Source: Vicinamibacterales bacterium (GTDB lineage: Bacteria > Acidobacteriota > Vicinamibacteria > Vicinamibacterales > UBA8438). Taken from it: 64,000 bases of DNA. The notes below the pieces were generated by a model, which worked only from the letters and a program-made list of their open reading frames with translations, did no database searches and was not told the DNA's origin. Shown one piece after another: positions 1-26,183 of the stretch; within the stretch, counting starts at the first letter, position 1, and each line of letters opens with the position of its first letter. Location: assembly GCA_036012905.1 (NCBI GenBank), contig DASCQF010000009.1, positions 12,982 through 76,981 of the forward strand, in the 5' to 3' direction. The position numbers were made by a program, and so were the translations under genes.

Positions 1-15
1 TCATGAGCGCCTGAA

Positions 16-294
16 TCACCCGAACGACACGATAGTCGTGACCGAACACGAAATAGATGCTTCCGAAAAACGCGTAAATGCCTGGCTCTCGCCTTGGCTG
101 CAGTCCCTTCGTCGGAAAGCCATAACCCCGCGCCAGGTTCCAGCCCCCGTGTCGTAAGCGGCGGCATCGCTCTCCACCACAAGCCATGGATCCATCCAGA
201 CCAAGTACATTACGTTCAGGGCCAGCGCCACAAAACAGACCGCGAGCACCCAGGATCGCTTGGATCTCATTTTGCCCCGGTCGATCATGTCCAC
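16..294 (-). CDS. hypothetical membrane-anchored protein at the downstream end of the minus-strand cluster; boundaries uncertain
   Basis: The 92-aa ORF has one hydrophobic helix (SWVLAVCFVALALNVMYLVWM), and its start overlaps the stop of the upstream methyltransferase. Its C-terminal third is not protein-like. A second frame (GYGFPTKGLQPRREPGIYAFFGSIYFVFGHDYRVV...) runs off the window start, so a frameshift or a longer gene is possible. Confidence 0.3.
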   Translation of the reverse strand: MDMIDRGKMRSKRSWVLAVCFVALALNVMYLVWMDPWLVVESDAAAYDTGAGTWRGVMAFRRRDCSQGESQAFTRFSEASISCSVTTIVSFG

Positions 295-1190
295 GTCTCG
301 ACGAGCTTGCCTCCGACCGGCGTCATTACGCGCCCCGCCGAAGCGTGGAATACCACCCGGGACACACGGTTGTTCAACCTCAGCAGCCAGTTCTCTAGAC
401 GATTCGACGACATCGTCGGCTCGGCCGGCGAGACCCGGACCCGAGAAAATCCGGATTGATCGAGAAGCCTTGCCAGACTCTCCGGCGAGAAGTCACGAAG
501 GTGAAATGGCGGGCACAACAGATCCAGTCCCAGGAGCTTCTTGACGCCATACGCCGGCACCGCTTGCGGGACAACTCCGATCAGAAGCCCGCCCGGCTTC
601 AGGACGCGATGCACGTGCGACAGCATGAGCAGAGGATCCCACACGTGCTCTAGCAGGTAGATGCACGTCACCACGTCGTATTGGGCGTCGGGCAGTCCGA
701 GATCCTCCAAGGCCTCTTCGTGCACAGTAGCACCCAGATGAACACGACAGTAGTCGGCCGCAGCGGCGGCCAACTCGATGCCCTCCCGATCCCACTCAGC
801 TGCGGAAAACATCTCCAGTAGGAACCCATAGCTGCAACCGATGTCCAGTACCCGCCTGCGGCGGTTATCATCCTCGCGTGCCGAGCTAGCCGCCAGGCGG
901 TACGCCTGATGGAACACACCGCTCATCTGGCGGCGCCAGCCCTCGATCCCATCCGCGTCGAGCGCTTCGAAAAAGCGTCCATACCAGTCCGAAAGAGCGT
1001 CGCGCGTCGGTCGCGGGTTCACGTAGACGTGGCGGCACTGCCGACAGCGCAAGATGCGGAAGCCGTTCTCCACGTGCAGCTGGATCGCCTCGTCGTGCCC
1101 ACACAGCTCGCAGCTGCGTTCTTCGAGGGCCTCCGCCGGTCCGGGCCATTCGCGCCAACGACCAGCCTCGGTCGTGCTCGCATCGGTCAC
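285..1190 (-). CDS. class I SAM-dependent methyltransferase with N-terminal Cys4 zinc-ribbon
   Basis: It has the SAM motif I VLDIGCSYGFLLE and an N-terminal CELCGH...CRQCRHVYVNP ribbon. It makes a 4-nt ATGA overlap with the upstream gene. Confidence 0.85.
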   Translation of the reverse strand: MTDASTTEAGRWREWPGPAEALEERSCELCGHDEAIQLHVENGFRILRCRQCRHVYVNPRPTRDALSDWYGRFFEALDADGIEGWRRQMSGVFHQAYRLAASSAREDDNRRRRVLDIGCSYGFLLEMFSAAEWDREGIELAAAAADYCRVHLGATVHEEALEDLGLPDAQYDVVTCIYLLEHVWDPLLMLSHVHRVLKPGGLLIGVVPQAVPAYGVKKLLGLDLLCPPFHLRDFSPESLARLLDQSGFSRVRVSPAEPTMSSNRLENWLLRLNNRVSRVVFHASAGRVMTPVGGKLVETWT

Positions 1191-2128
1191 AGGATGGCGT
1201 CCAGGATTTCGGGTCGCGTTGCGGCCTCACGGTATGTAACCGACCGAAAGCGACTCGCAATCGTCTTGACGACCTGATCGACCATATTCAAACGCTCGGC
1301 GAGCGGAATTCGCAGGGCTGGATAGCGTTTGAGCGTCGGCGCGAACCCGTCATCGTTCTCTCCAAGTAGATCAAAGGAGTGAAAGACGTAGGTCAGAAAT
1401 TTCATGTGACGAACAGCAGCAAACTGCGCCTGAAAGGCTCGAATCCCAGCCGTAAACATCACCGTTGCATACACGGGAAACTTGACGCCAGGAATCTGGG
1501 TAATGGGAAACTCAACCATTGGGCGGGTGCCCATTCGCCAGTATGGCCGCCCCAGGCGATACGGGCGGTTTGGCGCCAGGGCGCACTGCCAATCGCCCAG
1601 ACCAAGCGGACGACCGCCCCCGACGACGCGGTAGCACACGTTCAGCAACGGATTGAAGAACGACGGATAGACCGACGCGTCGTAGTGAAATCCCCGTTCC
1701 TCCAGAATGTCGATCACGTCGGCGTCGATATCGTGGGCCGGCGCCTTGTAGCCTACGACCGGCTGCCCCGTCGCGTCTTCGAGCAGCTTCTGAGCATCCT
1801 CGATCTCACGGACCTTGTCCGCGTAGGCCATCTCGCGCATGCCGAACGGGTGCGTCATCGTGTGATTCGCCACCTCGTGCCCGGAATCGACAAAGCGCCG
1901 GAGACTGCGGCTGTTCTTGTCTGTCAGGATGTCTTCGCCGACTACGAACAGCGTCGCCTGGACGCCGTGCCGCGCGAGGATGTCCAGGAACCGATCGGCC
2001 ACCGGTCCGAACATCACCTCGCCGACCGGAGGCGCCGGCAGGTTCAGCGTGCGATACAGGTGCCGTGTGTCCTCGTAGTCGAGCGCAATGCACGCGAAGC
2101 GCCGGTCGCCATTGTTGGACGCGTCCAT
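1187..2128 (-). CDS. polysaccharide deacetylase (NodB-homology / CE4-like)
   Basis: Motifs: FACIALDYEDT, ATLFVVGEDI and HEVANHTMTHP. I chose the start at the second Met (2128) because it gives an ATGA overlap with the upstream stop; the ORF track extends to 2185. Confidence 0.8.
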   Translation of the reverse strand: MDASNNGDRRFACIALDYEDTRHLYRTLNLPAPPVGEVMFGPVADRFLDILARHGVQATLFVVGEDILTDKNSRSLRRFVDSGHEVANHTMTHPFGMREMAYADKVREIEDAQKLLEDATGQPVVGYKAPAHDIDADVIDILEERGFHYDASVYPSFFNPLLNVCYRVVGGGRPLGLGDWQCALAPNRPYRLGRPYWRMGTRPMVEFPITQIPGVKFPVYATVMFTAGIRAFQAQFAAVRHMKFLTYVFHSFDLLGENDDGFAPTLKRYPALRIPLAERLNMVDQVVKTIASRFRSVTYREAATRPEILDAIL

Positions 2129-3555
2129 CACACGAGGGGCTGCCGGTTCGACAGGCGCCAGTAGTCGAGCATCTCGTCGTACCACTGCGCGCTCGTCGCC
2201 CCCGTTTCAATGCGCTCGACAAGCATGCGTCCGTTCTCCATGGAGTCGTGCATGTCGTTCTGCAGAAACATCCCCTGCCGGCCAAACGAAAAGACGTTCT
2301 CGGCGGACGAGAGACCGTCGAGCACAGCGCTGAGATTACGATCGAAGTCCAGATCGTAGACCGGGTAGGCGTCCTTCATGCGCACGACGTGATAGTCAAC
2401 GATCTTCGTCGTATCGACGTCCGGCATGCGCGCAAGCTCATCCCGGGCCACCTGGAAGATCCCCTCGTCCGACCGGCTCCACCACTCGTCGCCGACGTAA
2501 CAGCCGCGCTCGATGGTCACCACGCTTCGGCCAGGCGTGGCGGTGTCGGCGCTCATGTTCTTCTGCTCGGTGAGCCGATTGAACTTGAACGTCGGATCGA
2601 CCAGATAGATCCAATGAACCGGCAGCACCTTCGGCAGGTCAAATGCCAGGTAGACGACCAGGAGCGACCGGTATCGAAGCAGCTTGAGCGCGTGACGGAA
2701 GAACTCGCCCAGCGCGGGACGCACGGACGACACCAGATATCGCAGGGGAATTGACGACAGGACGAGGTCACACGGAATCTCCGCCGTGCCGCCGCCGTTG
2801 GAGACCCGGACGCTGGTCGCACGCCCGTCGTTGACACAGACCGTCACCGGCTCGGTGGACAGATGGAACTGACCACTGCGTGCGCCGATCTCGGCCGCGA
2901 GGCGTTCGAAGAGCTGGCCGCTGCCATGGCGAGGGTAGACGAGGTCCTTCCAGTAGGTCTCCTGCTCCTCACCTTTGCCGCCGAGCAGTTTCAGAATGAT
3001 GTCCTTGAGATTCAGCCGATGGATCTTGCGCGCGGCAAACTTGGGGGAAATCCTGGCCGGGTGCATCCCCCAGACCTTTGCCGTGTACTGACCGAAACAG
3101 AGCTCGTAGAGCGACTTGCCGAAGCGCTTGATGCACCACGACTCGAAGTTGTCATCTGGCACCGCTATGTAGCGGTAAATCAGCGACGACATCAGAAAAT
3201 CGAAGCCCAGCCTGGCCGAAAAGAACGGGTTCAACTTCCGGAGCAGCTCGTAGAACTGCATCGGATACCGGAAGTATCTCTTCTTGAGATAGAGCAGCTC
3301 GTCTCGATCCTGAAAAATCAGGTCGTCCGGCCGGTCCGCGAACAGGTTCCTGACCAGGTCCATCGACGGCGACGGCTTTACGTGAAAGGCATGTGGCCCG
3401 TAATCGAGCTTGAAGTCGCCCCAGCGGAAGGTGGCGCCAAGACCGCCGACGCGCGGCTCGCGGTCCACGATCTCAACGTGGTAGCCCTTCTCCGTCAGGT
3501 GATACGCCGCACTCAGGCCAGCCGGGCCAGCCCCCAAGACCACCGCGCGCTTCAT
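2128..3555 (-). CDS. FAD/NAD(P)-binding oxidoreductase (amine-oxidase / phytoene-desaturase-like fold)
   Basis: The N-terminal dinucleotide-binding motif is MKRAVVLGAGPAGLSAAYHL...VEIVDRE. The 475-aa length is typical of this family. Confidence 0.8.
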   Translation of the reverse strand: MKRAVVLGAGPAGLSAAYHLTEKGYHVEIVDREPRVGGLGATFRWGDFKLDYGPHAFHVKPSPSMDLVRNLFADRPDDLIFQDRDELLYLKKRYFRYPMQFYELLRKLNPFFSARLGFDFLMSSLIYRYIAVPDDNFESWCIKRFGKSLYELCFGQYTAKVWGMHPARISPKFAARKIHRLNLKDIILKLLGGKGEEQETYWKDLVYPRHGSGQLFERLAAEIGARSGQFHLSTEPVTVCVNDGRATSVRVSNGGGTAEIPCDLVLSSIPLRYLVSSVRPALGEFFRHALKLLRYRSLLVVYLAFDLPKVLPVHWIYLVDPTFKFNRLTEQKNMSADTATPGRSVVTIERGCYVGDEWWSRSDEGIFQVARDELARMPDVDTTKIVDYHVVRMKDAYPVYDLDFDRNLSAVLDGLSSAENVFSFGRQGMFLQNDMHDSMENGRMLVERIETGATSAQWYDEMLDYWRLSNRQPLV

Positions 3556-4487
3556 GGGAGAGTCTCTTCCGGCTCCAGGTGTGCCTTGAGGCGCAGCAAG
3601 CCGTCTTCCAGCTCGATGGCGGGCTCGAACCCGTAGAGGCGCCGCATCCTATCCGGAGACACGGAGAATCGAATGTACTCTGGAACGGTATCAGCGTGGC
3701 GTATGCGGCCTTCCGGTCGTCCAAGAATGAGTGACGCCCGATTGACGAGCTCATTGATCGTCAATGGCGCGCCCGAGCTCAAGTCCACTACGTGGTTGGC
3801 AACCCCGGCCACCATCATCAGACGGACTGCCCGCACAAGGTCGTCCACGTGCAGCGCATCGATGAGATTCTCGCCATCGCCGCGAACCTCGAACGGACTG
3901 CCCGACGCGTCGCCGGCCCAGCGGACGAGACGCGTGAAGAGCTTGCGCTCGGGCTCGTAGCGGCCGTAGGCACCGAAGAAGCGAACAATGACGTAGCTCG
4001 AGATCTGCCCCTCAGACCGGAAGTGTTGCACATAGCGTTCACACGCAAATTTTGATATCGCATACGGCAGAGTGGGCTCGACTGGCGTCTCCGGTCCGAC
4101 GAGGCCCTCGAGCCCGTCATAGACCGCACCCGATGAGAAGTACACGAGCCGATCGCACGCTACGGACGTCAGCAGGGTGACGAGACTGACCGGCCCATCG
4201 AGTAGGTCGCCGCGCGGATCGCGGACAGAGTAAGCGGGGTCGCCGTTGGCCGCCAGATGGACAATGACGTCCGTCCGCCCCCCGAGCTGCCGACCAAGCG
4301 CTACTACGTCTTCCTGGATGGCCAGATCGCACTTGATCGGCACTACATGCCCGAGCCCATTCGCCCGCACCCAAGCTGGAAAGTCCGTCGACCGCCGGTA
4401 GATCGCAAAAACGACCCAGTCGGAATCAGTCCCGAGCAGCAGGTTCCTGCCAACGAACCCCGACGCGCCCGTCACCAGGAGACGCAC
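3552..4487 (-). CDS. NAD-dependent sugar-nucleotide epimerase/dehydratase (extended SDR)
   Basis: It carries the Rossmann motif LLVTGASGFVGRNL and the catalytic YAISKFACE (YxxxK). It uses a GTG start that overlaps the upstream TAG stop. Confidence 0.85.
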   Translation of the reverse strand: MRLLVTGASGFVGRNLLLGTDSDWVVFAIYRRSTDFPAWVRANGLGHVVPIKCDLAIQEDVVALGRQLGGRTDVIVHLAANGDPAYSVRDPRGDLLDGPVSLVTLLTSVACDRLVYFSSGAVYDGLEGLVGPETPVEPTLPYAISKFACERYVQHFRSEGQISSYVIVRFFGAYGRYEPERKLFTRLVRWAGDASGSPFEVRGDGENLIDALHVDDLVRAVRLMMVAGVANHVVDLSSGAPLTINELVNRASLILGRPEGRIRHADTVPEYIRFSVSPDRMRRLYGFEPAIELEDGLLRLKAHLEPEETLP

Positions 4488-5563
4488 TACCGATTCGCCT
4501 CGAGTGCCTTAGCCATCGCGCGGGCGACAGCGTCATGCCCGGCCGGCGTGAGGTGGATGAAGTTGACAGCGAAAGAGTAGATATCACGCTCTGGAAAGAA
4601 GACACTCACCCCGCGATCGGCCTCGGCCTGCAGCGCCACCAGCACGTCGATGCACTGGAGGCCGATCTCCCTGCACATCGCGGCAACCCGCCGCTGCGGA
4701 CCATTGAGGCTGTCGCCCTCCCAGGACTGGCGCAGGTGCGGTACGACCTGGTTCCCGAACGGCAGCACGACCACCACGAGGCGTGCATCGTGCGATCGCA
4801 CCGCATCGGCAAGCTCGCTGAGGAGGGTCCGCGTCCGCTGCCAGCCCTCGTCGACCCAGGGCTGCGGCGGATCCTCTAGCAGGGCGGTCCCGCTGTAGAA
4901 CCCCGCACTCCGAAAACCGAGGCGGACAAGCAGGGAGTCGTAGCTCTCGGCGAGCAGACGATAGAAATGAAGACGGCGTAGGCGTGACTTCAAAGGAATG
5001 TTGAGCTCCATCGGCCGACTGACCGCCGCGCGAACGTTGTCAGCAACGTCATTGCCGAGAAAGAGACCGAGAACAACCAGGCGCGCCTGCAGTCGATGGA
5101 GCCGGTCACTGTAGTAGGCGAGCGCGTCCGCCGTGCCATACCCTGGGACGCCCGCGTTGAGCACCCGGACGGGGTTCGCCTCGTCCTCGAACAAACGGTC
5201 CAGGACCGTGGGGTACGCTGCCTCGCCTTCCACCCACGCCCCGAATGTCTGGGAGTCACCGAGGACTAAGATGCGGTCACCCCGATCCGTAGTCGCGACG
5301 GACGCAGTCGACGAGACCCGCAGCCCCCAGTCGTCGGTGTAGATGGCCGCGCGGAGATCGCCGGCGGGCGATTGCATGAGGGGCCCGCGTAGGCCCGACG
5401 TCGGACGGTAGCCGTACGACGACCCGTCGCGGGTCATTACACCCTCCGGGAAAAGTATCGGGCGCGTTGCGTAGTACCAGGAGAGAACAAATTCGGCAGA
5501 ACACAGACCGACCAGTAGCCCTGTAACTACGAACACGAAACGGAATACTCTGCCGCGCTTCAT
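4487..5563 (-). CDS. membrane-anchored SGNH/GDSL-family hydrolase (possible sugar O-acetyl esterase/transferase)
   Basis: SGNH block I is ILVLGDSQTFG, block III is LFLGNDV, and the C-terminal block is HLTPAGHD. The N-terminal TM anchor begins MKRGRVFRFVFVVTGLLVGL. I trimmed the start to the Met at 5563, which gives an ATGA overlap with the upstream gene. Confidence 0.7.
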   Translation of the reverse strand: MKRGRVFRFVFVVTGLLVGLCSAEFVLSWYYATRPILFPEGVMTRDGSSYGYRPTSGLRGPLMQSPAGDLRAAIYTDDWGLRVSSTASVATTDRGDRILVLGDSQTFGAWVEGEAAYPTVLDRLFEDEANPVRVLNAGVPGYGTADALAYYSDRLHRLQARLVVLGLFLGNDVADNVRAAVSRPMELNIPLKSRLRRLHFYRLLAESYDSLLVRLGFRSAGFYSGTALLEDPPQPWVDEGWQRTRTLLSELADAVRSHDARLVVVVLPFGNQVVPHLRQSWEGDSLNGPQRRVAAMCREIGLQCIDVLVALQAEADRGVSVFFPERDIYSFAVNFIHLTPAGHDAVARAMAKALEANR

Positions 5564-6525
5564 GCCTTCGCATCCTTCAAGGTTCGCCGAAAGTACTCGA
5601 TGGTTTCCGAAATGCCTTCGTCGAGCCCGACGCGTGGCGAGAAGCCGAGCAACCGCTCGGCCTTCGCGATCGACGGAACCCGGACCTCCACGTCCGGCCC
5701 AGTCTGTTCGCGAAACTCGATCTTCGACTTCGACCCGGTGAGCGCAATGATCTTGTTGGCCAGCTCCAAGATCGTGATCGTGCCACGAGGGTTGCCGATG
5801 TTGAATACCTCCATCTGGGGAAATGAAGTCGACAGGACCCTCAGCAGGCCATCGACGAAATCCGAGACATAGCACCACGCGCGAATCTGAGTGCCGTCGC
5901 CGGTAATCGTGAGTGGCTCATCGCGTACCGCCTGATACGCAAACCGCTGGATGGCGCTCTCGCCCGACTGTCGCGGTCCGTAGACGTTGAACGGCCGAAC
6001 GCTCACCGCTTCGATACCGTGCTCAGCCGCGTAGGCGTGCGACATGTGCTCGGCCGCGAGCTTGCTGACGGCGTACGACCAGCGGATGCTCCCCACGGGG
6101 CCCTGGGTTGTCGGTGCATCTTCCGCCGCTCGGTAGACTTGTGGGCCGTAGACCTCGCTTGTCGAAAAGTCGACAAACTTCTGCACACCGTTCGCCACGG
6201 CTCCGTCGAGCGCGTTAATCGTTCCTAGGAGGTTCACCTTCATGGTGACCATCGGGCGCTTGACGACAGTCTCGATGCCGGCGATCGCAGCGCAATGAAT
6301 CACGATCTCAGCCTCCTCCATCGCGGCGTTGAGGCCTGCAGTATCGAGAACATCGCCCTCGACGACCGTAACGTTGGGATGGCTCAGAATTGCCTTGTCC
6401 GCGAGCGAGCGCCGATACCCGTTATCGAAGAGCACGATCGTGTTGGAGGCCATGAGCTCCTCCACGACATGGGACGCAATGAACCCGAGCCCCCCGGTGA
6501 TGAAGAGGCGTTTTCCGGAAATCAT
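5560..6525 (-). CDS. NAD-dependent sugar-nucleotide epimerase/dehydratase/decarboxylase (extended SDR)
   Basis: It carries the Rossmann motif LFITGGLGFIASHVVEEL and the catalytic YAVSKLAAEH. Confidence 0.85.
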   Translation of the reverse strand: MISGKRLFITGGLGFIASHVVEELMASNTIVLFDNGYRRSLADKAILSHPNVTVVEGDVLDTAGLNAAMEEAEIVIHCAAIAGIETVVKRPMVTMKVNLLGTINALDGAVANGVQKFVDFSTSEVYGPQVYRAAEDAPTTQGPVGSIRWSYAVSKLAAEHMSHAYAAEHGIEAVSVRPFNVYGPRQSGESAIQRFAYQAVRDEPLTITGDGTQIRAWCYVSDFVDGLLRVLSTSFPQMEVFNIGNPRGTITILELANKIIALTGSKSKIEFREQTGPDVEVRVPSIAKAERLLGFSPRVGLDEGISETIEYFRRTLKDAKA

Positions 6526-7691
6526 GAATCAACCCTCGCGGCGCGTATGCCCGACATGGTCTCATGCGCCAGAAATTCCCTATATGCCGTTTCCAAGGCC
6601 CGAACGCCGACCGACGCTGCGAAGCGTTTCCGAACGGTCCGCCTGGCTTCGTTCGTCAGGGCCCACCGAAGACCTGAATCTCGCAGAAGCCGGAGCAATG
6701 CGGCCGCGAGCGCCTTGGGGTCCCGTGGAGGCAGGAGCAAGCCGTCGACTTCATCCGTGACGACTTCCGGAATCCCGTCCGCCGAGGTTGCGACCACCGG
6801 CAGTCCCGCTGCCATCGCTTCCATGAGTGCGATGCCGAGCCCTTCGGCGACCGACGGGAACGCGAATAGATCCGCGGCACGCAAGAGCGACTCTACGTCG
6901 CGGGTCGAGCCGAGGAGGCGTACTCGCGCAGCGACGCCGAGGGCACGGGCCCGCGCTTCGAGGGCCGGCCCCTCCGGCCCTTCGCCAGCAAGCCAGACCT
7001 GCGCGCGCGGTGCACAGGCAAGAACGTCGGGCAGCGCCTCGATGAGGTCAGCCTGGCCCTTCTCCCACGAGAGCCGACCCACGTTGAGAATGACAACGTC
7101 TTCGTCACTGCACCCCGCCCCGGCGCGCGTGGCCCGCCGAGCCGCTGGATCGGGCGGATTGCGAGGCTCCAGGTCGATGTAATTGTGCACCACCTTGATA
7201 TCCGGCAGCGCGAAGTGCTTTGTGTAGTCGGCGCGGACCGCGTCCGACACCGCCAGAAAACCATCATTGATCCGTCGTGCGGACCAGCGGTCGAGCATCT
7301 TCCAGAGGGCACCGCCCAACGAACGCGGCGGCCAATGCGTATAGTCGGGACAGTGGAAGGACGTCACGACGACTGGCACGCCGGCCAGTCTGGCGGCGAG
7401 GCGCCCGTATAGATTCGCCTGCCTCAAGTGCGTATGGACAATCGTCGGACGGGCTCCGCGGAGCAGACGGACAAGTCGGGCCAGTGCCCCTGCATCGAGA
7501 AGCCGCCGTGCCCCGACGGTCTGTACGGTCACCCCGGCGGCCTCCAATGCCGGCTTCAGGTCGAGTGGCGGCGCCATGGCGATCACCGCGGGCTCGAATT
7601 GCGTACGGTCGAGGTGACGAACGGTCGTCAGAATGAGCTGCTCGGCGCCCCCGCGCCTCAACGTGTCGATCAAAAACAGCACCCGTGTCAC
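6522..7691 (-). CDS. glycosyltransferase, GT4 (GT-B fold)
   Basis: The N-terminus reads VLFLIDTLRRGGAEQ. The C-terminal EX7E-type region reads FPSVAEGLGIALMEAMAAGLPVVATS. Confidence 0.85.
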   Translation of the reverse strand: MTRVLFLIDTLRRGGAEQLILTTVRHLDRTQFEPAVIAMAPPLDLKPALEAAGVTVQTVGARRLLDAGALARLVRLLRGARPTIVHTHLRQANLYGRLAARLAGVPVVVTSFHCPDYTHWPPRSLGGALWKMLDRWSARRINDGFLAVSDAVRADYTKHFALPDIKVVHNYIDLEPRNPPDPAARRATRAGAGCSDEDVVILNVGRLSWEKGQADLIEALPDVLACAPRAQVWLAGEGPEGPALEARARALGVAARVRLLGSTRDVESLLRAADLFAFPSVAEGLGIALMEAMAAGLPVVATSADGIPEVVTDEVDGLLLPPRDPKALAAALLRLLRDSGLRWALTNEARRTVRKRFAASVGVRALETAYREFLAHETMSGIRAARVDS

Positions 7692-7700
7692 AACCGATTC

Positions 7701-11283: not shown

Positions 11284-11320
11284 AGGAAGGGTCTCAGGCG
11301 CATCCCATCCGGGTGCCACT

Positions 11321-12055
11321 TCATTCTCGTAACGCCTGCGCGAGCAGAGTGCGTGTGAGCACTCGTGGGCGGTCGGTTCCCAGCTCGATGAGGTATGCAA
11401 GGTTGAGGAACGCGAACCAGAGCTTTCGCAGCGCCAGCCAGACGATGAACCTGGGCCTCCAGCGAAGGCGCATCCGCTCGCCGAACACGCTGATGCGCTT
11501 GAAGCCCACGGTCTCCAGGACCTTCCGCAGCGAGAGGTCGTTGAAACACACTTCGTGGGTCAGACTGATGTAGCGAAGGTACGGGCCTGCAACACCGGCG
11601 GCGTTGTTCGTCCGCACGAGCAGGATCCCGCCCGGACGAAGAGCCTCTCTGAGGGCGTCCAGGATCGCGAGCAGGTCGGACTTCGGAAAGTGCTCGATCA
11701 CATCGCCCAGATAGATCACGTCGTACCGGGCTGGATGCGATGTCAAGAACTCCTGAAGGTCGGAAATCCGCGTCACCGGGCACCCCACGAGACGCTCGCA
11801 ATACGCAATCAGATGTTCCGAAATCTCCACGCCTTCGATCTTCTGATACCCTCGCTGCTTCAGAAAGTACAGGAATTCGCCCATACCGCAGCCGATGTCG
11901 AGGATCGCCGCTTCCTTGTTTGCGGGTAACAAGGACTCGTAGTTGTCTTCCAGCCATTCCTGACCGCGCCCCCTAACCCGCAGGAACTCCTCGACGGGGG
12001 GCAGCGAACCCTGGAAGTCGATGTTGTGATACCGCTCAGCGTAGTGTTCAGTCAC
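11321..12055 (-). CDS. class I SAM-dependent methyltransferase
   Basis: SAM motif I is ILDIGCGMGEFLYFL, followed by the acidic loop VEISE and YDVIYLGDVIEH. Confidence 0.85.
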   Translation of the reverse strand: MTEHYAERYHNIDFQGSLPPVEEFLRVRGRGQEWLEDNYESLLPANKEAAILDIGCGMGEFLYFLKQRGYQKIEGVEISEHLIAYCERLVGCPVTRISDLQEFLTSHPARYDVIYLGDVIEHFPKSDLLAILDALREALRPGGILLVRTNNAAGVAGPYLRYISLTHEVCFNDLSLRKVLETVGFKRISVFGERMRLRWRPRFIVWLALRKLWFAFLNLAYLIELGTDRPRVLTRTLLAQALRE

Positions 12056-12070
12056 GAGTTTGTGCTCCCC

Positions 12071-17423: not shown

Positions 17424-17563
17424 GATCCCGACCTCTGCAGCAAGGGAGGGTTTGTCGCCTCCAAGATCATAGTGTTCGCGGCCTCGAGGTGACCCTCATG
17501 GCTCGCACCGATTCTTGGGATGACCAACTGGCGTGTCTGGGGGTTCACGTTACTGACGTTCAT
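17420..17563 (-). pseudogene. remnant of a neuB-like 5' end (47-codon ORF), translationally coupled to the B12 radical-SAM gene
   Basis: The ORF MNVSNVNPQTRQLVIPRIGASHEGHLEAANTMI... matches NeuB MNIGNVNLETRPLVIAEIGANHEGDLDAAKTMI at 21/33 residues, and homology stops after about 35 codons. Its TGA overlaps the ATG of the radical-SAM gene (ATGA at 17420-17423). Its own ATG lies inside the 3' end of the upstream fusion gene. Confidence 0.65.
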
Positions 17564-19343: not shown

Positions 19344-20685
19344 CCGTGAGCGGCTCCCATTCATAGGTTTCCTTGAACGGGCACTCCCGACAGATCGGGA
19401 TGTCCTCGAGTCGTTCCTGGACATGAGCCCGCCGAACGTCATTCACGATGCGGCCGTCCCAGATCTCCTTGAGCGTCTGCACGCGCTTGGGGGGATCCAC
19501 ATGGCGGCTCGGCATCTGCGCGTTGGCCAACAGCGTGTACCCCTTGGCTCCATCCTCCACCTTGTCCACGACCGCCTGGTAATCAGCTGGCGCCTCTTCG
19601 TAGGCCCGCGCATCGACATAGCCAATCGGATGCTCGTTGCCCCAGTCGTAGCAACACATACAAACCGTGCCGTCGTACGCCACCATGAGGCGCTGGTAGG
19701 GCTGCTCGCAGGGAAGTCGCCGTACGGCCGCGTACACGTTGTCGTCGATGTCGCGCCACAGGGCGTTCTCATCCGGTGACAGCCCCTTCGCCGACAACCG
19801 CTGGAGCACGAGCGATTTCGTCTTTGGGTCCAAAGCGTTGAGTGCACCGCCACGTTCCGTATACGCCTTGACCGACACGTCGTCCACGCAGCCCGAGAAC
19901 AGCTCGAAGAACGATTCTTGCTCCCGTCGCGTCTGCTCGGTCAGAATCATCTGAATCTTCGTCCGCGGCCATTGCGAGCCCATCTCGTCGCGAATCTGTG
20001 CAAATCGGCGGATGTTCTCGTAGACCTGTTCAAAGCTGTTCTCGACGAAGCGGCCCGGGCGCATCCGCTCGTAGGTGTCCTTCGCGCCGCCGTCGAACGA
20101 ATAGACGAGCAAGTCGAGCCCCGCTTCAATGAGCGCGCGACTTTTCTCGGCCGTCAGTGTCACCGCGTCAGTCGTGATGATCGTCTCCAGGATGCCGCCA
20201 CGTTTCGCATAGTCGACGAATCGCGCCAGCATCGGATGTAACAACGGCTCTCCGCGCCAGAGCAATTTGACCGATGGCACACGCAGCTCCGTGCACTGAT
20301 CGATCAGCCGGTAGAACAGCTCCTCCCGCATCGTCTTGTCGGGCGTCACGATCGACTGCCGATAGCAGAACGGACAGGCCAGATCGCACACGGCGGCAAT
20401 CTCGATGTCGACGCAGAGCGGCGGATGACCGGTGACGCGAACATACCGATCATGGAGCTGGTCGGCGAATGCCTGCTGGGGGTATCCGCGCCAGCCGACC
20501 CGATAGGCCTCGAACCGCTCGACGAACTCGGCCAGCAGCGCGCCACCCGGATCTCCGCCGGCGCGCTCCACGGCATATCGATAGGCTTTGTTGGCGCCCA
20601 TGTGCGTCACGGCATGATGGACGCGTCCGGCTTCAGAATCCGTCCGGCCCTGAATCGCGTATAGCCGTTCAGCTCCCATGGGCAA
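19333..20685 (-). CDS. radical SAM enzyme with SPASM/twitch-like C-terminal Cys cluster
   Basis: The radical-SAM motif is CDLACPFC (CX3CX2C). The C-terminal auxiliary-cluster Cys residues are in PCEQPYQRLMVAYDGTVCMCCYDW and ICRECPF. Confidence 0.85.
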   Translation of the reverse strand: MPMGAERLYAIQGRTDSEAGRVHHAVTHMGANKAYRYAVERAGGDPGGALLAEFVERFEAYRVGWRGYPQQAFADQLHDRYVRVTGHPPLCVDIEIAAVCDLACPFCYRQSIVTPDKTMREELFYRLIDQCTELRVPSVKLLWRGEPLLHPMLARFVDYAKRGGILETIITTDAVTLTAEKSRALIEAGLDLLVYSFDGGAKDTYERMRPGRFVENSFEQVYENIRRFAQIRDEMGSQWPRTKIQMILTEQTRREQESFFELFSGCVDDVSVKAYTERGGALNALDPKTKSLVLQRLSAKGLSPDENALWRDIDDNVYAAVRRLPCEQPYQRLMVAYDGTVCMCCYDWGNEHPIGYVDARAYEEAPADYQAVVDKVEDGAKGYTLLANAQMPSRHVDPPKRVQTLKEIWDGRIVNDVRRAHVQERLEDIPICRECPFKETYEWEPLTDEC

Positions 20686-22066
20686 CCGTGCTCTCTTGCC
20701 GTCGGTGTGTGATCAGGCGTTCCACCATCATGAAATCGTCTTCGTCATCGATCTGCAGGCTCTCTTGTTTCAACATCACGGTGTGACCGATCCGCTCGCC
20801 CAGGAATTCAGGGCCGTCGAGATTCTCCGTCTTCGCCAGGTAGATCGCCCCGTTCTCGACCCACAACGCCTCTCGCTCGAGCCTCAACGCACGACGGTTC
20901 GTGAGCGGACGTAGCCCGTGGCCGACATGTTGATAGTGATTCAGCAGATCCTCGTACACCGAGATGACACTATCGGTCTCGAAGATCAACATGTTGTCCA
21001 TAGCATTCAGAATATGCTCCGCCGTGCGAAGCGGGCTGTTGACGTACAGCAGCATGAAGGCGTCGATTCCGTCTGGCAGCTGATCGTGCTGGAGGGCGAA
21101 CCGCACGGTCGATGCGATCGAGGTGTTGGGTCTCCCGAGGTCTGTCGGGCGCCGCACAGCAAACACGCCGCGACGGGACCTCACGTAGTCCAGGACGGCC
21201 TCGTCCTCGGACACGACCACGACGCCCGCAAACCTCTCGCACGCCAAGGCCACGTCGATCGTGTAGTCGAGGAGCGGCCGGCCGGCTATCGCACGAAGCG
21301 CATACGCCGCTTCGTCGTGCGCCTTGCTCCGAGCGGGCACGATGGCCAGTGTTCGAAGCGTGACATCATTTCGTGCAGTCTGCGCATGGCGGCGATCGAT
21401 TTCCCTGCGTGCCTTGAGCAGCCTGGCCTTGTCGACGGTAAGGCTGTTGCCGTGTTGACGATAATAGAAGAGCGGAACATTGACGTTGTAGACGCCGAAC
21501 TTCTCGATTAGCCGGATCCAGAGATCGTACCCATCCTGGCATCCTATGTCGTCCGAGTATCCCTCGAGCTCCTGGAGACAGCGGCTCCGAACCATCGTAC
21601 CGGCGCCGTGTGCGGCCACGTTATAGAGCGTGATGTCGGTACCAAGCTTGTTGCGACGCTCGAGGCTGAGAATCTCGCCCTTCTCATCGATCAAGAAGTA
21701 GTCGGGGTAGACCAAACCCACTTCGGGATGCGTGTCAAGGATGTTCGCCAGTACGACAACGGCGTTCTCGTCGAGGTAGTCATCGGCATCCAACCGCATG
21801 ATGTACTCGCCATGCGACAGTCGCAATGCGATGTTGGCAGACACGATGAGCCCGTGATTCTCTTGCAGCACCACGCGCACATTCGGCGTGTGCTCGAACT
21901 CCTTGATGATCTCTGGTGATCCATCCGTGGAGCCGTCATCGATGATGATCAGCTCCCAGTCCGTGAACTTCTGGTGCAGCACGCTCAGGATCGCCTGGCG
22001 AATGAACCTGCCGTAGTTGTGGTTGGTGATGTACACCGTCACTTTGACTTTATCCATCGACCACAC
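20669..22066 (-). CDS. fusion protein: GT2 glycosyltransferase + NeuA-like cytidylyltransferase-fold domain
   Basis: The N-terminal GT2 signature is VTVYITNHNYGRFIRQAILSVLHQKFTDWELIIIDDGSTDGS...RLDADD. The C-terminal domain has LAIVPARSK...LLYVNSPLR...ENGAIY...QIDDEDD, arranged as in NeuA. The canonical GLPxKN loop is replaced by AHDEAAYAL. Confidence 0.8.
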   Translation of the reverse strand: MWSMDKVKVTVYITNHNYGRFIRQAILSVLHQKFTDWELIIIDDGSTDGSPEIIKEFEHTPNVRVVLQENHGLIVSANIALRLSHGEYIMRLDADDYLDENAVVVLANILDTHPEVGLVYPDYFLIDEKGEILSLERRNKLGTDITLYNVAAHGAGTMVRSRCLQELEGYSDDIGCQDGYDLWIRLIEKFGVYNVNVPLFYYRQHGNSLTVDKARLLKARREIDRRHAQTARNDVTLRTLAIVPARSKAHDEAAYALRAIAGRPLLDYTIDVALACERFAGVVVVSEDEAVLDYVRSRRGVFAVRRPTDLGRPNTSIASTVRFALQHDQLPDGIDAFMLLYVNSPLRTAEHILNAMDNMLIFETDSVISVYEDLLNHYQHVGHGLRPLTNRRALRLEREALWVENGAIYLAKTENLDGPEFLGERIGHTVMLKQESLQIDDEDDFMMVERLITHRRQESTVAHGS

Positions 22067-22090
22067 TCATCACTCGACATGCCGAGTCGC

Positions 22091-23104
22091 TCATAGCCGC
22101 GCCTTTCGTCCACCGGCGCCAGGGTGGTCCGACTTGCCACCGGAATGGCCAAGCCACACCAGGAGCCGAGCACTACGCTGTCGTCCCACCAGCGTCTGGA
22201 GACTTCGTTTGATCACCTGCCTGCCCGCAGCAAGGCTCCTTCGTTCCACCTGTCGAAGACGCGCGCGGAAGATGGCACGACGGAGCGCCGCACGAGACGC
22301 AGGCTCGGCGAGCGGCTCGGACGCACGCGCGGGATCCACGGGCTTCGCGAGTGCCACGAGCTCCACCCGGTCACTGAGGCCAACGACCGCAAATCCAGAC
22401 CTTGCAAACGTCTGCCGCAGCGTGTCGGGCGTGAACAGGGAGAGATGCGGACTCGACAGCTCTTCAACGGGCTCGGCGAGACGCAACACGTTCGGGGTCG
22501 TGATATACGCCGCTCCGTTCGGTGCGAGCAAGGTCCGAAGCTTGGCCAGGAAGGCGAAGGGGTCATTGGTGTGCTCGAGGACGTCCATCGCGATAGCGAG
22601 ATCAAACCGCCGGCCTTCGAGTTGTGCATCTTCGAAGACCGCCTCGATTACCTCGACTCCGTACTCCTGGCGTGCGTGCGTGGCGTAGGTCGCCGTCGGC
22701 TCCACGCCCAACACGCTCCAACCGTCGCCGGCCAGCATCGACAATAGCAAACCCTCGGCGCAGCCGACCTCGAGCGCGGAGCCGGGTCGCACACGGCTCG
22801 GCAACCTGTCGCGGAGCCACTGATAGTCCCGTTCCGCCTTGAGCGTCTTCCAGTACAGGTACTCCTGACTCGGACCGTCGTCGGCATAGCCCAGCGCCGG
22901 AGACCGATACACACCGCTATAGAGACGCCGTAACTCCTGGGACGAGAGCTGGGGATTGGCGTAGATGTGTCCACATTGACCGCAGAGGACTTTCACCGAG
23001 GTTGACGGAGAGACGTTCAGTGCCTTCAAGTAGCGGTCGTTCGGCACTCGCCACAGCGTCCGCGCCCGACCACTCCCACACGAGACGCAGTTGACGTATT
23101 CCAC
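22091..23104 (-). CDS. class I SAM-dependent methyltransferase with N-terminal Cys4 zinc-ribbon
   Basis: The ribbon is CVSCGS...CGQCGHIYANP and SAM motif I is ALEVGCAEGLLLSML. The architecture is the same as the gene at 285-1190. Confidence 0.85.
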   Translation of the reverse strand: MEYVNCVSCGSGRARTLWRVPNDRYLKALNVSPSTSVKVLCGQCGHIYANPQLSSQELRRLYSGVYRSPALGYADDGPSQEYLYWKTLKAERDYQWLRDRLPSRVRPGSALEVGCAEGLLLSMLAGDGWSVLGVEPTATYATHARQEYGVEVIEAVFEDAQLEGRRFDLAIAMDVLEHTNDPFAFLAKLRTLLAPNGAAYITTPNVLRLAEPVEELSSPHLSLFTPDTLRQTFARSGFAVVGLSDRVELVALAKPVDPARASEPLAEPASRAALRRAIFRARLRQVERRSLAAGRQVIKRSLQTLVGRQRSARLLVWLGHSGGKSDHPGAGGRKARL

Positions 23105-23532: not shown

Positions 23533-25110
23533 CTACGACCGGTGCCCCGCCATCGCCAGGGGCTGCCAGGCGGCGGCAGCCACCATCTTCACGACCTCCC
23601 AATCCCTGCGTGTGAGCTCACTCAGCAGAGCCAGCGCCAAACAGTACACGGCCGGGGCCGCGACGCCGCACGCGAGCGCGGCGGGCGTGCCTGCCGGACG
23701 CAGCATATGCGCACTGCCCACGACAAGAACGGCGGCGCCTAGGGCCCGGGCGATCGACGTCATCGGCACGATGCGTCGCATGTGCGCAACGGTCACGAGC
23801 GTGATCACCCGTGTCAGACCGTACGCCAGGAACGTGGCGGCGATGGCGCCCGGCGCGCCGAAGCTCGGAATCAGGGCCAGATCGAAGATCAGCACCGCGC
23901 ACCCGAGCAGGCTGCTCAGGGCGACCGATTCTTTCACGAGGTTGTAAGCGTTCATCGCGAAGATGCCGTAGGCGACCCAACCCGCCCGCAGCACAAAGAC
24001 TGGAAGCAGCATCCGGAAAAGCGGCACCGCATCCGCGTAGTCTGGTCCAAACGCTAGCCCCACGAACGGCTCAACCAGGAAGAACACGGTGACAGCGAGC
24101 AGGGTGGCACCGTGCAGGAACCACCGGAATAGCACCTGGAATCTCACCCTGATGTAGTCCTGATCCATCGTGGATATCTTCGAGACGTATGGGGTCAGCA
24201 CCAGCGTCAGCACGTTGACGACCGTCATCATGGCGCCGATGAACAGGCCTGCAAGGTAGTACGTCGCGACTTCGCCGGGCGAGCGCCACCAGCCGAGCAT
24301 GAGCTTATCCGCCCAACTGAGTGCGTAGAAGCTCTAGGCGACGGCCTTTAGGGGAAGGCCGAACCGCCACACCAGGGCGGCATGCTCGGACACCGTCCGG
24401 AACCGCAGCAAGGCGCCAGCCCGACGCCACATCCAGTGCCGAACGAGGCCCAGCCCAAGGACCGCGCTCCCGAACGCACAGCCGCCAGTAATGATGAGCG
24501 CGGCGGTGACCGTGAGATCGGCGAACGTCACCCACAAGCCGAGCACCAGCAACTGGGACCCTATGAACACGAACCCGATGAGCGCCTCTCGCTTCCAGTC
24601 CTGGAGGCTCTGGTAGAGTTGCGCGACGAAATCCCGAAGGGCAATCCCCACGAAGTACAGCGCACCGATGGCGAGGGGCCAGGCTAGCGCTGGCACTCGA
24701 AAGAATCGATCAGCCAGCAGGTTCGCTGTGCCCAGAATCACGAGCGCGCAGAACGCCGCTCCCGCGAGCTGGATGAGTAGCGCCGCGGCCGCCAAGTCGG
24801 CCGCTGGTCCGGGCGACTCAGCGTCTGGCTTACGGACCGGCAGGTATCGGATGAGAGTACTCTTCGCGCCAAAATCTGAGAGCACGAAAGCCAGCCCGGT
24901 GACGCTGTAGACCAGCACCAGAAGTCCGTAGTCCTCTCGGCCGAGCGCGCGACTCAAGATCACGGACGCCAGAAAGCTCCCGACCAGGGCGACGAGGGTC
25001 GCCCCCAACTTGAGCCTGACGCTCCGGCCCAGCGCGAGCACTTCCGCCGCAGTCCCGGTGGGACCGACTCCGCTCGCGTTGGTCGGCACGGAATCGGCAG
25101 TCTCAGGCAA
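23533..25110 (-). pseudogene. Wzx-like flippase paralog interrupted by a single in-frame TAG (24334-24336)
   Basis: ORFs 24334-25110 and 23533-24300 are in the same frame (I checked the coordinates modulo 3). Read through, the junction is FGLPLKAVA*SFYALSWADKLMLGWW, which aligns with FGLLLSFQGLYRFGVSWFDKILLGRF in the intact paralog at 9766-11283. Confidence 0.7.
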
Positions 25111-25172
25111 CTGACGCTCGCTGCAGTGCCGCTAACAAAGGGGAAAATGGGCGACAGGGACGTGCGCCGCGT

Positions 25173-26183
25173 TCAGAGAGCAGAACGGCGGGACGCAGGG
25201 ATCGTCTGATCGCCGGGCCAACCTCCACCCTCGGCCGGTACGTCGACCAACTCCTCGTGAACTTCGTAGTCCGTCTCCGATTCGAAGGTCATCGGGCACG
25301 TGCACTCCGCGCACATCGAGAGCGCTGTGAAGTCGCGGAGCATGGTATCGCGATACTTCACATACGCGGGACCGTTCCAGATCTCTCGAAACGGCGTCGT
25401 AAACACGTTCCCGAACGGATACCAATTGTTGAAGTCCATGTCGCAGATCGTGACCGAGCCATCGCCATTGATGTTCGTCATCAGGTAGGGCTTGTCGCAG
25501 GTCGTGACGGAGCGCTTCAGCCGTAGGCGACCCGCCTCCATGCGGTAACGCGTCGCGTGCTCGACATCGGCGGGGATGAGGTCGGTGGTGTCTGGTGACC
25601 CGTCGAACTTCTCGCCGATACCGTAGTGCACGTCGAGCGTCTTGAGCCGCACGATATCGACGCCGAGACTGGCTGCGCGTCGCCGGAACGGTTCCGCTTG
25701 ACTTGCTGCATCCCGGTGCAAGAGCAACTGGAGGTGCACCACCGGCTTTCGCCTACCCATCGTGCGGCGCCGCTCGACGAGCCGCTTGATACCCTGATTG
25801 AGCTTGGCGTAGTCGCCGCCGACCCGATAGGTGAGGAACGTATCGGCATCCAGCCCGTCGTAGGCGATGATCGCCACGTCCAGCCCGGAGCTGATCATGA
25901 GCTCGACGTTCATCTCGTTCAGAAAGTGCCCGTTCGTATTGATCGTGATGTCGATCGGACTGTACCGCCGTTTCGCGTACCCGATCATGTCGAACAGCTC
26001 TTTGTTCATCGTCGGCTCGCCGATGCCGACGAGCTGCAGAGTCTTCGTGTACGGTCCAAGCTGGTCGATGACCGTCTTGAAGTCTGCGAACGAGACCACA
26101 GCCGTCTCTCGATCCATGCGTCCCGTGGTCAACGGGCAGAGCGGACACTCGAGGTTGCAACGATTGATCGGCTCGAAGTGCAC
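25173..26183 (-). CDS. radical SAM enzyme with SPASM-like C-terminal Cys cluster
   Basis: The radical-SAM motif CNLECPLC lies only 9 residues from a GTG start. The C-terminal Cys residues are in TCDKPYLMTNINGDGSVTICD and CAECTC. The in-frame upstream extension runs into the IS terminal repeat and stops there. Confidence 0.8.
   Translation of the reverse strand: MHFEPINRCNLECPLCPLTTGRMDRETAVVSFADFKTVIDQLGPYTKTLQLVGIGEPTMNKELFDMIGYAKRRYSPIDITINTNGHFLNEMNVELMISSGLDVAIIAYDGLDADTFLTYRVGGDYAKLNQGIKRLVERRRTMGRRKPVVHLQLLLHRDAASQAEPFRRRAASLGVDIVRLKTLDVHYGIGEKFDGSPDTTDLIPADVEHATRYRMEAGRLRLKRSVTTCDKPYLMTNINGDGSVTICDMDFNNWYPFGNVFTTPFREIWNGPAYVKYRDTMLRDFTALSMCAECTCPMTFESETDYEVHEELVDVPAEGGGWPGDQTIPASRRSAL

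Follow-up and report, generated by a model that had tools for sequence, protein, structure and literature searches.

Sialic-acid-like sugars cap bacterial surfaces and flagella and govern phage, immune and surface interactions, and to our knowledge their known biosynthesis uses polar chemistry only. A 64 000-nucleotide stretch of contig DASCQF010000009.1 from an uncultured, soil-type acidobacterium (hereafter the window), which holds at positions 285-26183 a glycan gene cluster combining NeuB-type synthases and cytidylyltransferases with radical S-adenosylmethionine (radical-SAM) enzymes, raises the question of whether radical chemistry takes part as well; we know of no radical-SAM enzyme in any described legionaminic or pseudaminic acid pathway. 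The radical-SAM enzymes are integral to a conserved, apparently undescribed variant of nonulosonic-acid biosynthesis. On balance, we favour the view that the locus makes one or two ulosonic acids of a 9-carbon type, activated with cytidine monophosphate (CMP), of the nonulosonic (legionaminic- or neuraminic-like) type, which would be tailored by radical-SAM and SAM-dependent enzymes and transferred by a WaaA-like glycosyltransferase of family GT30.

Synthases and cytidylyltransferases of the locus

Domains were called by Pfam and NCBIfam profile searches, with NCBIfam supplying the equivalog cutoffs. The genes that carry the argument are listed here.

12071..13459, minus strand: GT30 (WaaA-like), candidate CMP-ulosonic-acid transferase (Glycos_transf_N PF04413, 102 bits)
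13525..14235, minus strand: CMP-sugar synthetase of the NeuA/PseF/LegF type (CTP_transf_3, 89.7 bits)
14344..15366, minus strand: predicted nonulosonic-acid synthase, NeuB+SAF (NeuB-SAF), 340 aa (NeuB PF03102, 261 bits)
15531..17423, minus strand: class B (B12-binding) radical-SAM enzyme, 630 aa (PF02310, 64.4 bits; PF04055, 73 bits)
17550..19343, minus strand: fusion of NeuB and an SpsF-type cytidylyltransferase (NeuB-CTP), 597 aa (NeuB, 150 bits; CTP_transf_3, 75.8 bits)
19333..20679, minus strand: SPASM1, radical-SAM/SPASM enzyme (twitch-like), 448 aa (Radical_SAM, 49.8 bits; partial SPASM, 35 bits)
20669..22057, minus strand: fusion of GT2 and a cytidylyltransferase-like domain (GT2-CTP) (Glycos_transf_2, 93.7 bits; CTP_transf_3, 28.8 bits)
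25173..26183, minus strand: SPASM2, radical-SAM/SPASM enzyme, 336 aa (SPASM, 50.6 bits; Radical_SAM, 40.6 bits)

These searches found again each domain named in the original prediction, which had been made from the DNA alone, and bore out its description of a glycan locus centred on NeuB-type synthases and cytidylyltransferases. By Pfam the window holds two NeuB-family synthases and three CTP_transf_3 domains, the one in the GT2-CTP fusion being weak (28.8 bits against a cutoff of 22.6). NeuB-SAF aligned end to end with solved PseI and NeuB, with the presumed active-site motifs present, and the putative metal-binding histidine motifs of the fused NeuB (DH and EKH, residues judged by eye) matched those of NeuB-SAF. 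Scores against the specific models lay below their cutoffs: NeuB-SAF and the fused NeuB reached 321 and 180 bits with NeuB_NnaB (cutoff 399.65) and 282 and 136 bits with PseI (cutoff 340.25), and the stand-alone cytidylyltransferase was nearest to PseF at 144.7 bits (cutoff 205.7). A full-text literature search found no paper linking radical-SAM, SPASM or B12 enzymes with nonulosonic-acid, NeuB or cytidylyltransferase pathways. None of the key enzymes reached an equivalog cutoff, and the earlier statement that the cluster could not be matched to a described pathway was upheld.

The NeuB-CTP architecture is widespread in other organisms. Other fusions found elsewhere are NeuB+CTP+GT2 (ca. 1040 aa), NeuB+NeuB+SAF+CTP and CTP+NeuB+CTP, and a NeuB-GT2 fusion is present in the related locus L097. 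Because the NeuB, CTP and GT2 parts are fused to each other in this way elsewhere, they can be tied together by the Rosetta-stone argument. The NCBIfam spiro-SPASM model, in which a cytidylyltransferase-like N-terminus is joined to radical-SAM/SPASM, matched the SpsF-type domain and both SPASM enzymes of the window.

A conserved core that includes a radical-SAM enzyme

Related clusters were compared through the contexts of the GT30 clade, the window and six others making seven (including L096, L097, L098, L182, L183 and L184). NeuB was present in five of the seven, CTP_transf_3 in six, a SPASM radical-SAM gene in four and Epimerase_2 in three; lipid A or 3-deoxy-D-manno-octulosonate (Kdo) genes were present in none, and all seven carried Wzx or ABC export, GT4 and PMT_2 genes. 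L096 contains orthologues of GT2-CTP (68% identity), SPASM1 (68%), NeuB (66%), GT30 (58%), a short-chain dehydrogenase/reductase (SDR; 81%) and a flavin adenine dinucleotide (FAD)-dependent oxidoreductase (73%), the GT30 gene being sometimes duplicated, as in this locus. L183 contains orthologues of SPASM1 (60%), GT2-CTP (48%), NeuB-CTP (38%), NeuB-SAF (53%), the stand-alone cytidylyltransferase (44%) and GT30 (40%), and further holds Wzy, Wzx, GT4, PMT_2 and Epimerase_2. The conserved core consists of the SPASM radical-SAM, GT2-CTP, NeuB(-CTP), NeuB-SAF, cytidylyltransferase and GT30 genes, and it excludes the B12-binding enzyme, since L096 and L183 keep the core while none of the six other clusters has a B12-binding radical-SAM gene.

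The SPASM1 gene shares 11 nt with the GT2-CTP gene at one end and 11 nt with the NeuB-CTP gene at the other, a layout that is conserved. The encoded protein has an N-terminal extension of ca. 90 aa and is called twitch-like because its SPASM match is partial, covering positions 1-38 of the 67 of the model. Its best solved relatives, BlsE (2e-4) and DesII (2e-3), are weak matches limited to the radical-SAM core, as is that of SPASM2 to BtrN (3e-9). SPASM2 is 24% identical to SPASM1, and neither has an equivalog match. It is the first gene after an insertion sequence (IS) element, a position that is unchanged in independent assemblies. Three radical-SAM genes had been described as embedded in the cluster; this holds for SPASM1 as part of the core, the B12-binding enzyme is an add-on, and SPASM2 is only loosely attached.

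In two of the related clusters (L097, 5024-10004; L182, 4969-10011), KdsA-like DAHP_synth_1 and shikimate-dehydrogenase-like genes precede NeuB, two cytidylyltransferases and GT30, a layout that hints at a paired pathway for an 8-carbon and a 9-carbon acid.

The B12-binding radical-SAM enzyme

The gene for the B12-binding enzyme is placed between the NeuB-CTP and NeuB-SAF genes, with flanking gaps of 126 and 164 nt, and has the lowest GC content of the cluster (0.559). The CxxxCxxC motif of the protein (C226/C230/C233) is invariant in 25 homologues, and every residue invariant in the family is retained. Members of the family are ca. 630 aa long, are at least 40-56% identical over their full length and share a conserved C-terminal region of about 200 residues. 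They span more than 10 phyla, with hosts in the Rhodospirillales (including Paramagnetospirillum magneticum, P. caucaseum and Magnetospirillum spp.), Nitrospinota, Prochlorococcus, Elusimicrobia, Omnitrophota, Planctomycetota, Nitrospirota and others.

Gene neighbourhoods of the family were analysed in 82 loci, the ORFs (open reading frames) of which were clustered independently of the window, and counts were restricted to the 45 loci in which both flanks reached 7 kb or more. Within 10 kb of the B12-binding gene, NeuB was present in 28 of the 45 and NeuB or CTP_transf_3 in 34, with PseB/LegB-type SDRs and DegT aminotransferases in 20 each and SPASM radical-SAM genes in 17; a member of the family (c8) of SAM methyltransferase 3 of the window (22091-23104) was found in 15. 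A genome generally carries no more than a few NeuB-family genes, so that in a 22-kb stretch picked at random one would be expected in only about 1-2% of cases. Median distances to the B12-binding gene were +93 nt for the cytidylyltransferase, -86 nt for the SPASM gene and +128 nt for a protein of ca. 600 aa, which are typically its immediate neighbours. The P. magneticum locus (L001) holds two NeuB and two cytidylyltransferase genes, a B12-binding radical-SAM enzyme 56% identical to that of the window, a SPASM radical-SAM enzyme and a complete Leg-like precursor set.

The radical-SAM genes are thus not passengers, as the association of the B12 family with NeuB or cytidylyltransferase genes and the SPASM1 orthologues in the syntenic L096 and L183 both indicate. 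A search for the joint occurrence of NeuB, WaaA-like and B12-binding genes had also been proposed, and here the outcome was divided: NeuB accompanies GT30 in five of seven contexts and the B12 family in 28 of 45 loci, but none of the six other GT30-type clusters has the B12-binding gene. Because of this absence from the six other clusters, the B12-binding enzyme is an accessory 'plug-in' between the two NeuB genes.

Three further observations concern the surroundings of this family. A protein of ca. 600-670 aa is encoded directly downstream of the B12-binding gene in 14 of the 45 loci (for example L001, 11938-13944); it had no match in the Pfam copy searched, only a weak precomputed 'PFTS_polysacc' match, and no homologue in the window, and it may be the transferase counterpart of GT30. 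A sub-module of genes for a KdsC-like HAD phosphatase, NeuB, a xylose-isomerase-like TIM barrel (AP_endonuc_2), a cytidylyltransferase, a class III aminotransferase and an SDR recurs in eight loci of the family (L007, L029, L030, L050, L059, L069, L081 and L082), and we do not recognise this sub-module in any nonulosonic-acid route described so far. The closest homologue of the window enzyme (78% identity; L003, 10001-11902) has as neighbours a carbamoyltransferase, DUF5989, a GDSL protein and an IS fragment, with SxtJ called only on the duplicate contig L004, and the flanks of L003 (a pyrroloquinoline quinone (PQQ) dehydrogenase and an amidohydrolase) resemble those of the window.

On these neighbourhoods turns the alternative that survives best, namely that the radical-SAM enzymes tailor the glycan elsewhere than at the ulosonic acid, by C-methylation or epimerisation of a hexose or aminosugar in the repeat unit, for which aminoglycoside pathways offer a parallel, or by acting on an N-acyl side chain once transfer has taken place. 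The known class B and twitch enzymes GenK, GenD1, BtrN, DesII and AprD4 are established to act on hexose or aminocyclitol units, 11 of the 45 loci have neither NeuB nor CTP_transf_3 within 10 kb, some of them only PseB/LegB-type and DegT genes, and the closest homologue sits in the carbamoyltransferase/GDSL context just described. Against this, no neighbours of the B12-binding gene are as constant or as close as the cytidylyltransferase genes, the 11-nt overlaps of SPASM1 with GT2-CTP and NeuB-CTP are conserved, and a cytidylyltransferase-like domain is fused to radical-SAM/SPASM in the spiro-SPASM family. We consider this alternative unlikely. A role of the radical-SAM genes as maturases of ribosomally synthesised and post-translationally modified peptides or of lipids was also considered and rejected, as no precursor-peptide or lipid genes were noticed and the sugar-nucleotide context is conserved.

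As to the reaction, an AlphaFold2 model of the B12-binding enzyme (pLDDT 84.2) gave as top Foldseek matches TsrM, OxsB, AprD4, MgmA and CysS, with E-values of 1e-17 to 1e-13, which are mostly but not all methylases. Its best NCBIfam matches were BchE, ApyD and HpnJ, all far below their cutoffs. Methylation is thus only the likeliest guess for this enzyme, since several of its nearest relatives are not methyltransferases, and we know of no recognised sequence signature that parts methylases from chemistry of the BchE, HpnJ, OxsB and AprD4 types.

The GT30 transferase

By its sequence, the GT30 of the window is a member of a distinct WaaA paralogue clade and not an ordinary WaaA. Its best score with the WaaA equivalog models was 174.7 bits, and none of their cutoffs (363-617 bits) was reached. 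The clade comprises about 50 metagenomic proteins at 36-62% identity, below which generic WaaA proteins drop to 34% or less. The informative relatives were drawn from metagenome proteins; a search of GTDB representative genomes yielded only generic WaaA at 28-30% identity. The motifs GGE, PRY and GQN..EP align with A. aeolicus WaaA (2xci), with 'VEREFWP' altered to 'IQNLRCP'. We take GGE, PR(Y) and GxN..EP to be catalytic or CMP-binding residues of the A. aeolicus enzyme, and their conservation therefore suggests that the donor of the window transferase is probably a CMP-linked 2-keto-3-deoxy acid.

The same conservation could be claimed for a pathway of the lipopolysaccharide-core or Kdo type, in which GT30 would serve the organism as its usual Kdo transferase, with the NeuB-like enzymes producing a Kdo-like acid of eight carbons for lipid A or the core, and not a nonulosonic acid destined for an outer glycan. 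The full-length homology of GT30 to WaaA with its conserved donor-site motifs, the KdsA-like DAHP_synth_1 next to NeuB, two cytidylyltransferases and GT30 in L097 and L182, and a host that is a Gram-negative acidobacterium would all suit such a pathway. However, the clade is sharply apart from generic WaaA, with equivalog scores far short of the cutoffs given above; lpx, kdsA/B/C or waaC/F neighbours occur in none of the seven contexts, all of which carry export, GT4 and PMT_2 genes, as outer-glycan loci typically do; and the window has no KdsA homologue, both of its synthases being of the NeuB family, one with a SAF domain. We regard a Kdo-type pathway as decidedly unlikely, and less probable than a tailoring of other sugars.

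Precursor genes beyond the window

The 10 kb beyond position 1 were read from independent metagenome assemblies with identical sequence (L086-L088). They contain three PMT_2 (GT-C) genes, two LegB/RmlB-like SDRs, an N-acetyltransferase, a DegT aminotransferase, a cupin, a small GT2 resembling polyprenyl-phosphate-sugar synthases and another GT4. The acetyltransferase belongs to the NeuD/PglB/VioB family (170.6 bits, above the cutoff of 160.8), and the hexosamine precursor genes (dehydratase, aminotransferase and acetyltransferase) lie 3-6 kb past the left edge of the window, with DegT at about 6 kb.

A tblastn search bore out the earlier observation that the window itself has no DegT, NeuC or PseG homologues. 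The precursor route, then called unclear, has become clearer in part, with DegT, the acetyltransferase and two LegB-like dehydratases just outside the window; the NeuC/PseG-type step was still not found. Epimerase_2 genes are present in the related clusters L098, L183 and L184, and a NeuC-type gene may therefore lie further downstream. The GT2 domain, for its part, always adjoins or is fused to NeuB or CTP. This constant placement, taken with the missing NeuC/PseG, raises the possibility that GT2 might free the sugar or pass it on; a takeover of the nucleotide-sugar hydrolase step of NeuC/PseG by this domain is speculative.

Tailoring and export genes

The remaining genes of the cluster encode further transferases, tailoring enzymes and exporters.

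285..1190, minus strand: SAM methyltransferase 1 (Methyltransf_23, 71.8 bits), with a Cys-rich N-terminal segment bearing paired CxxC motifs
1187..2128, minus strand: CE4 polysaccharide deacetylase (Polysacc_deac_1, 72.6 bits)
2128..3555, minus strand: FAD-dependent oxidoreductase, amine-oxidase/UDP-galactopyranose-mutase-like (Amino_oxidase, 93 bits; NAD_binding_8, 59 bits)
3552..4487, minus strand: second SDR (Epimerase, 117 bits; 66% orthologue in L096)
4487..5563, minus strand: SGNH/GDSL hydrolase-like protein (O-acyl esterase or transferase), 358 aa (Lipase_GDSL_2, 52.5 bits)
5560..6525, minus strand: SDR sugar-nucleotide epimerase/dehydratase (Epimerase, 183 bits; 81% orthologue in L096)
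6522..7691, minus strand: GT4 glycosyltransferase (Glycos_transf_1, 140 bits)
7701..9623, minus strand: AsnB-type glutamine amidotransferase (Asn_synthase, 248 bits; GATase_7, 151 bits)
9766..11283, minus strand: Wzx-type flippase, intact, 505 aa (Polysacc_synt, 44.9 bits)
11321..12055, minus strand: SAM methyltransferase 2 (Methyltransf_23, 72 bits)
22091..23104, minus strand: SAM methyltransferase 3 (Methyltransf_23, 79 bits), with a Cys-rich N-terminal segment bearing paired CxxC motifs
23533..25110, minus strand: second Wzx-type flippase, disrupted (Polysacc_synt on the N-terminal half; in-frame TAG at 24334-24336)

The FAD-dependent gene had been overlooked in the original prediction, the gene list of which is otherwise accurate in its domains; L096, which has a 73% orthologue of it, also carries a faint GLF match. 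GT4 orthologues, 33-47% identical, are present in five of the six other GT30-type clusters, with none in L098. AsnB recurs in both GT30-type and B12-radical-SAM loci, and a 67% orthologue of SAM methyltransferase 2 adjoins GT30 in L096. Of the Wzx flippases predicted earlier, one is intact and a second is broken by a single in-frame TAG into halves of 258 and 255 aa. As the split is identical in independent assemblies (L099-L102), it is not a sequencing error, and the second Wzx is a fixed pseudogene or a read-through site.

Layout, boundaries and host

The cluster at 285-26183 consists of 21 ORFs, all on the minus strand, with junction overlaps of -11, -11, -4, -4, -1, -4, -1 and -4 nt and with most of the remaining gaps below 165 nt; the only long gaps are the 428 nt after the broken Wzx and those of 108-164 nt around the B12-radical-SAM, NeuB and CTP genes. 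Promoter-like and terminator-like sites across the cluster showed no excess over shuffled controls. The arrangement is operon-like, given the tight packing and the lack of a terminator excess, and the ORF map and junction lengths support the description of a one-strand cluster of about 21 genes. Its extent needs revision at one end: the stretch from 285 to 26183 is real, while the left end is not at 285, as a PMT_2 gene begins at 187 and at least 10 kb more follow. The locus measures at least 36 kb in total, of which the window holds the upstream 26 kb.

1..187, minus strand: start of a PMT_2 gene (GT-C, ArnT-like), running off the window (gene calls in L086-L088)
26201..27580, minus strand: IS4-type DDE transposase, the upstream boundary, outside the pathway (DDE_Tnp_1, 66.5 bits)

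The junction of the IS4-type transposase with the cluster is also present in the independent assembly L099, and no convincing pair of terminal inverted repeats was found for the element. All intact ORFs, that is all except the second Wzx, are identical across many independent samples. An Rfam search of the whole window gave no match, cobalamin riboswitch included. To judge by a flanking PQQ-dehydrogenase that is 80-86% identical to proteins of Acidobacteria/Vicinamibacterales metagenome-assembled genomes (MAGs), the predicted host is an uncultured acidobacterium of the Vicinamibacteria type. GC content at third codon positions (GC3) is 0.70-0.83 in cluster genes against 0.84-0.88 in the flanking genes (28000-60600), and the AT skew flips sign between about 14 and 22 kb, a pattern that would fit a horizontal gain of the island and of the module at its centre.

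The least probable of the alternatives is a mosaic, partly decayed island in which the conserved core alone would be functional, the B12-binding enzyme, SPASM2 and the broken Wzx being recent arrivals or remnants that serve no coherent purpose, for although it could draw on the IS4 transposase at the border, a Wzx pseudogene fixed in the population with the 428-nt gap after it, the lower GC3 of the cluster, and a B12-binding gene that has the lowest GC, unusually long flanking gaps and no counterpart in other GT30-type clusters, each remaining ORF is intact and unchanged across many independent samples, the B12-binding protein retains all family-invariant residues, and its insertion between NeuB-CTP and NeuB mirrors its preferred context elsewhere.

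Two features lie apart from the cluster. Three paralogous PQQ-dependent dehydrogenases are encoded on the minus strand at 50110-52086, 52166-54163 and 55318-57627 (ca. 600-630 bits to PF01011), the second and third separated by a single small gene; they share 70-86% identity with Vicinamibacterales MAG proteins, the genomes of which often have several copies. A solitary CheR chemotaxis methyltransferase gene lies at 43007-43846, with no further che or flagellar genes recognised among the scanned ORFs of the window.

Proposed pathway

From the domain content, gene order, synteny, fusions, motif conservation and fold class described above, we infer a nonulosonic-acid pathway, its substrates, reactions and final acceptor included. 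The LegB-like dehydratases, the DegT aminotransferase and the NeuD/PglD-type acetyltransferase would supply an acetamido-deoxyhexose, which the NeuB-type enzymes would condense with phosphoenolpyruvate, and the cytidylyltransferases would turn the products into CMP-sugars. On an intermediate bound to a nucleotide, the SPASM/twitch enzyme may catalyse a redox-type reaction, be it a dehydrogenation, an epimerisation or a decarboxylation, in the manner of BtrN, DesII and BlsE. The B12-binding enzyme would most likely methylate a carbon that is not activated, either in the CMP-sugar or in its N-acyl group; there are precedents in Fom3, which acts on a CMP-linked substrate, CMP-hydroxyethylphosphonate, and in GenK and GenD1, which act on aminosugars. 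The three SAM methyltransferases, AsnB, CE4 and SGNH enzymes could add O- or N-methyl, amide and acyl decorations or remove acyl groups. The C-methylation, oxidation and amidation suggested in the original prediction are likewise putative. GT30 would then move the CMP-ulosonic acid onto a lipid-linked glycan assembled by GT4 and GT2 enzymes, which Wzx would flip and the downstream GT-C (PMT_2) enzymes would complete in the periplasm.

Several points weigh against this pathway. No key enzyme attains an NCBIfam equivalog cutoff, and no specificity of the NeuB enzymes follows from these scores. A tblastn search of the window and the adjoining 10 kb with two Epimerase_2 proteins found no NeuC/LegG/PseG-type gene, and the genes scanned there, those of the 36-kb locus included, showed neither a Wzy_C nor an initiating phosphoglycosyltransferase domain, Wzy_C being present in the related locus L183. 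The B12-binding gene is absent from all six other GT30-type clusters, neither NeuB nor CTP genes lie within 10 kb of its closest homologue, and BchE, ApyD, HpnJ, OxsB and AprD4 are relatives of the enzyme that are not methyltransferases. SPASM2 is cut off from the core by the Wzx pseudogene and the 428-nt gap, which makes its membership the least certain, and the IS element and pseudogene mark a remodelled locus of which parts could be inactive.

A bolder extension of the proposed pathway starts from mass spectrometry. In M. gryphiswaldense, CMP-activated higher-carbon (C10-type) ulosonic acids have been detected, with no genes assigned to them (bioRxiv 10.64898/2026.04.20.719630; Kleikamp et al. 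2020, PMC8157484). The three CMP-sugar masses are spaced by about 14.016 Da, a spacing that can be read as CH2 steps and that lends appeal to the idea of a radical C-methylation of nonulosonic acids. Radical methylation would then extend or branch the carbon skeleton of CMP-legionaminic- or CMP-pseudaminic-type sugars. It is tentative, and on our estimate somewhat unlikely, that C-methylation by the B12-binding family yields the C10 and larger CMP-ulosonic acids of Magnetospirillum, with the core of the window locus making and transferring an undescribed ulosonic acid and its GT30 having a new donor specificity. No M. gryphiswaldense protein was among the best 120 matches of two family members (the window protein and a homologue from Magnetospirillum sp. 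UT-4), and a genome scan with the P. magneticum enzyme gave 10 loci, none of them from M. gryphiswaldense. The link to the published C10 sugars thus stays hypothetical.

If the proposals hold, radical C-H chemistry would join the biosynthesis of this sugar class across more than 10 phyla, including Prochlorococcus, Nitrospinota and magnetotactic bacteria, candidate genes would be at hand for the C10 ulosonic acids that mass spectrometry has detected but not explained, and WaaA-like GT30 transferases would gain a new role outside lipid A. The cluster may make chemically new sugars, and testable enzymes are available in culturable hosts such as P. magneticum AMB-1.

Comparison with known systems

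The locus shares with legionaminic and pseudaminic acid clusters (C. jejuni leg/ptm and pse; B. subtilis sps, PMC7439481) a NeuB synthase with a CTP_transf_3 CMP-synthetase, a precursor set (a 4,6-dehydratase, an aminotransferase and an N-acetyltransferase, encoded here beyond the window) and tailoring by SAM methyltransferases; both an SpsE/SpsF-like and a NeuB/NeuA-like pair are present. It differs from them in its radical-SAM enzymes, in that no NeuC/LegG/PseG gene was found in the window and the adjoining 10 kb, and in a predicted transferase of family GT30 in place of the Maf, FlmG or sialyltransferase families. Two NeuB, three cytidylyltransferase domains and an obligatory GT2 domain likewise set it apart.

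Compared with WaaA/KdtA (A. aeolicus, 2xci), the window GT30 has the same fold and family and conserves the presumed CMP-binding motifs, but its clade is at most 34% identical to generic WaaA, and it stands in a context of Wzx, GT4 and NeuB instead of lipid A genes. The B12-binding enzyme has the B12 Rossmann N-terminal domain and radical-SAM barrel of the class B methyltransferases (Fom3, GenK/GenD1, TsrM, MgmA and CysS), and its position among cytidylyltransferase genes recalls the CMP-linked substrate of Fom3. In contrast to these enzymes, to which it is 15-18% identical, it carries the family-specific C-terminal region of about 200 residues, and the non-methylases BchE, HpnJ, OxsB and AprD4 are equally close to it. 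The window SPASM enzymes resemble their nearest solved relatives, the sugar-acting dehydrogenase BtrN, DesII and the decarboxylase BlsE, in combining a radical-SAM core with a Cys-rich auxiliary-cluster domain. Finally, the P. magneticum locus is like the window in having two NeuB, two cytidylyltransferases and both B12-binding and SPASM radical-SAM enzymes, and unlike it in that GT30 is replaced in position by an uncharacterised protein of ca. 670 aa.

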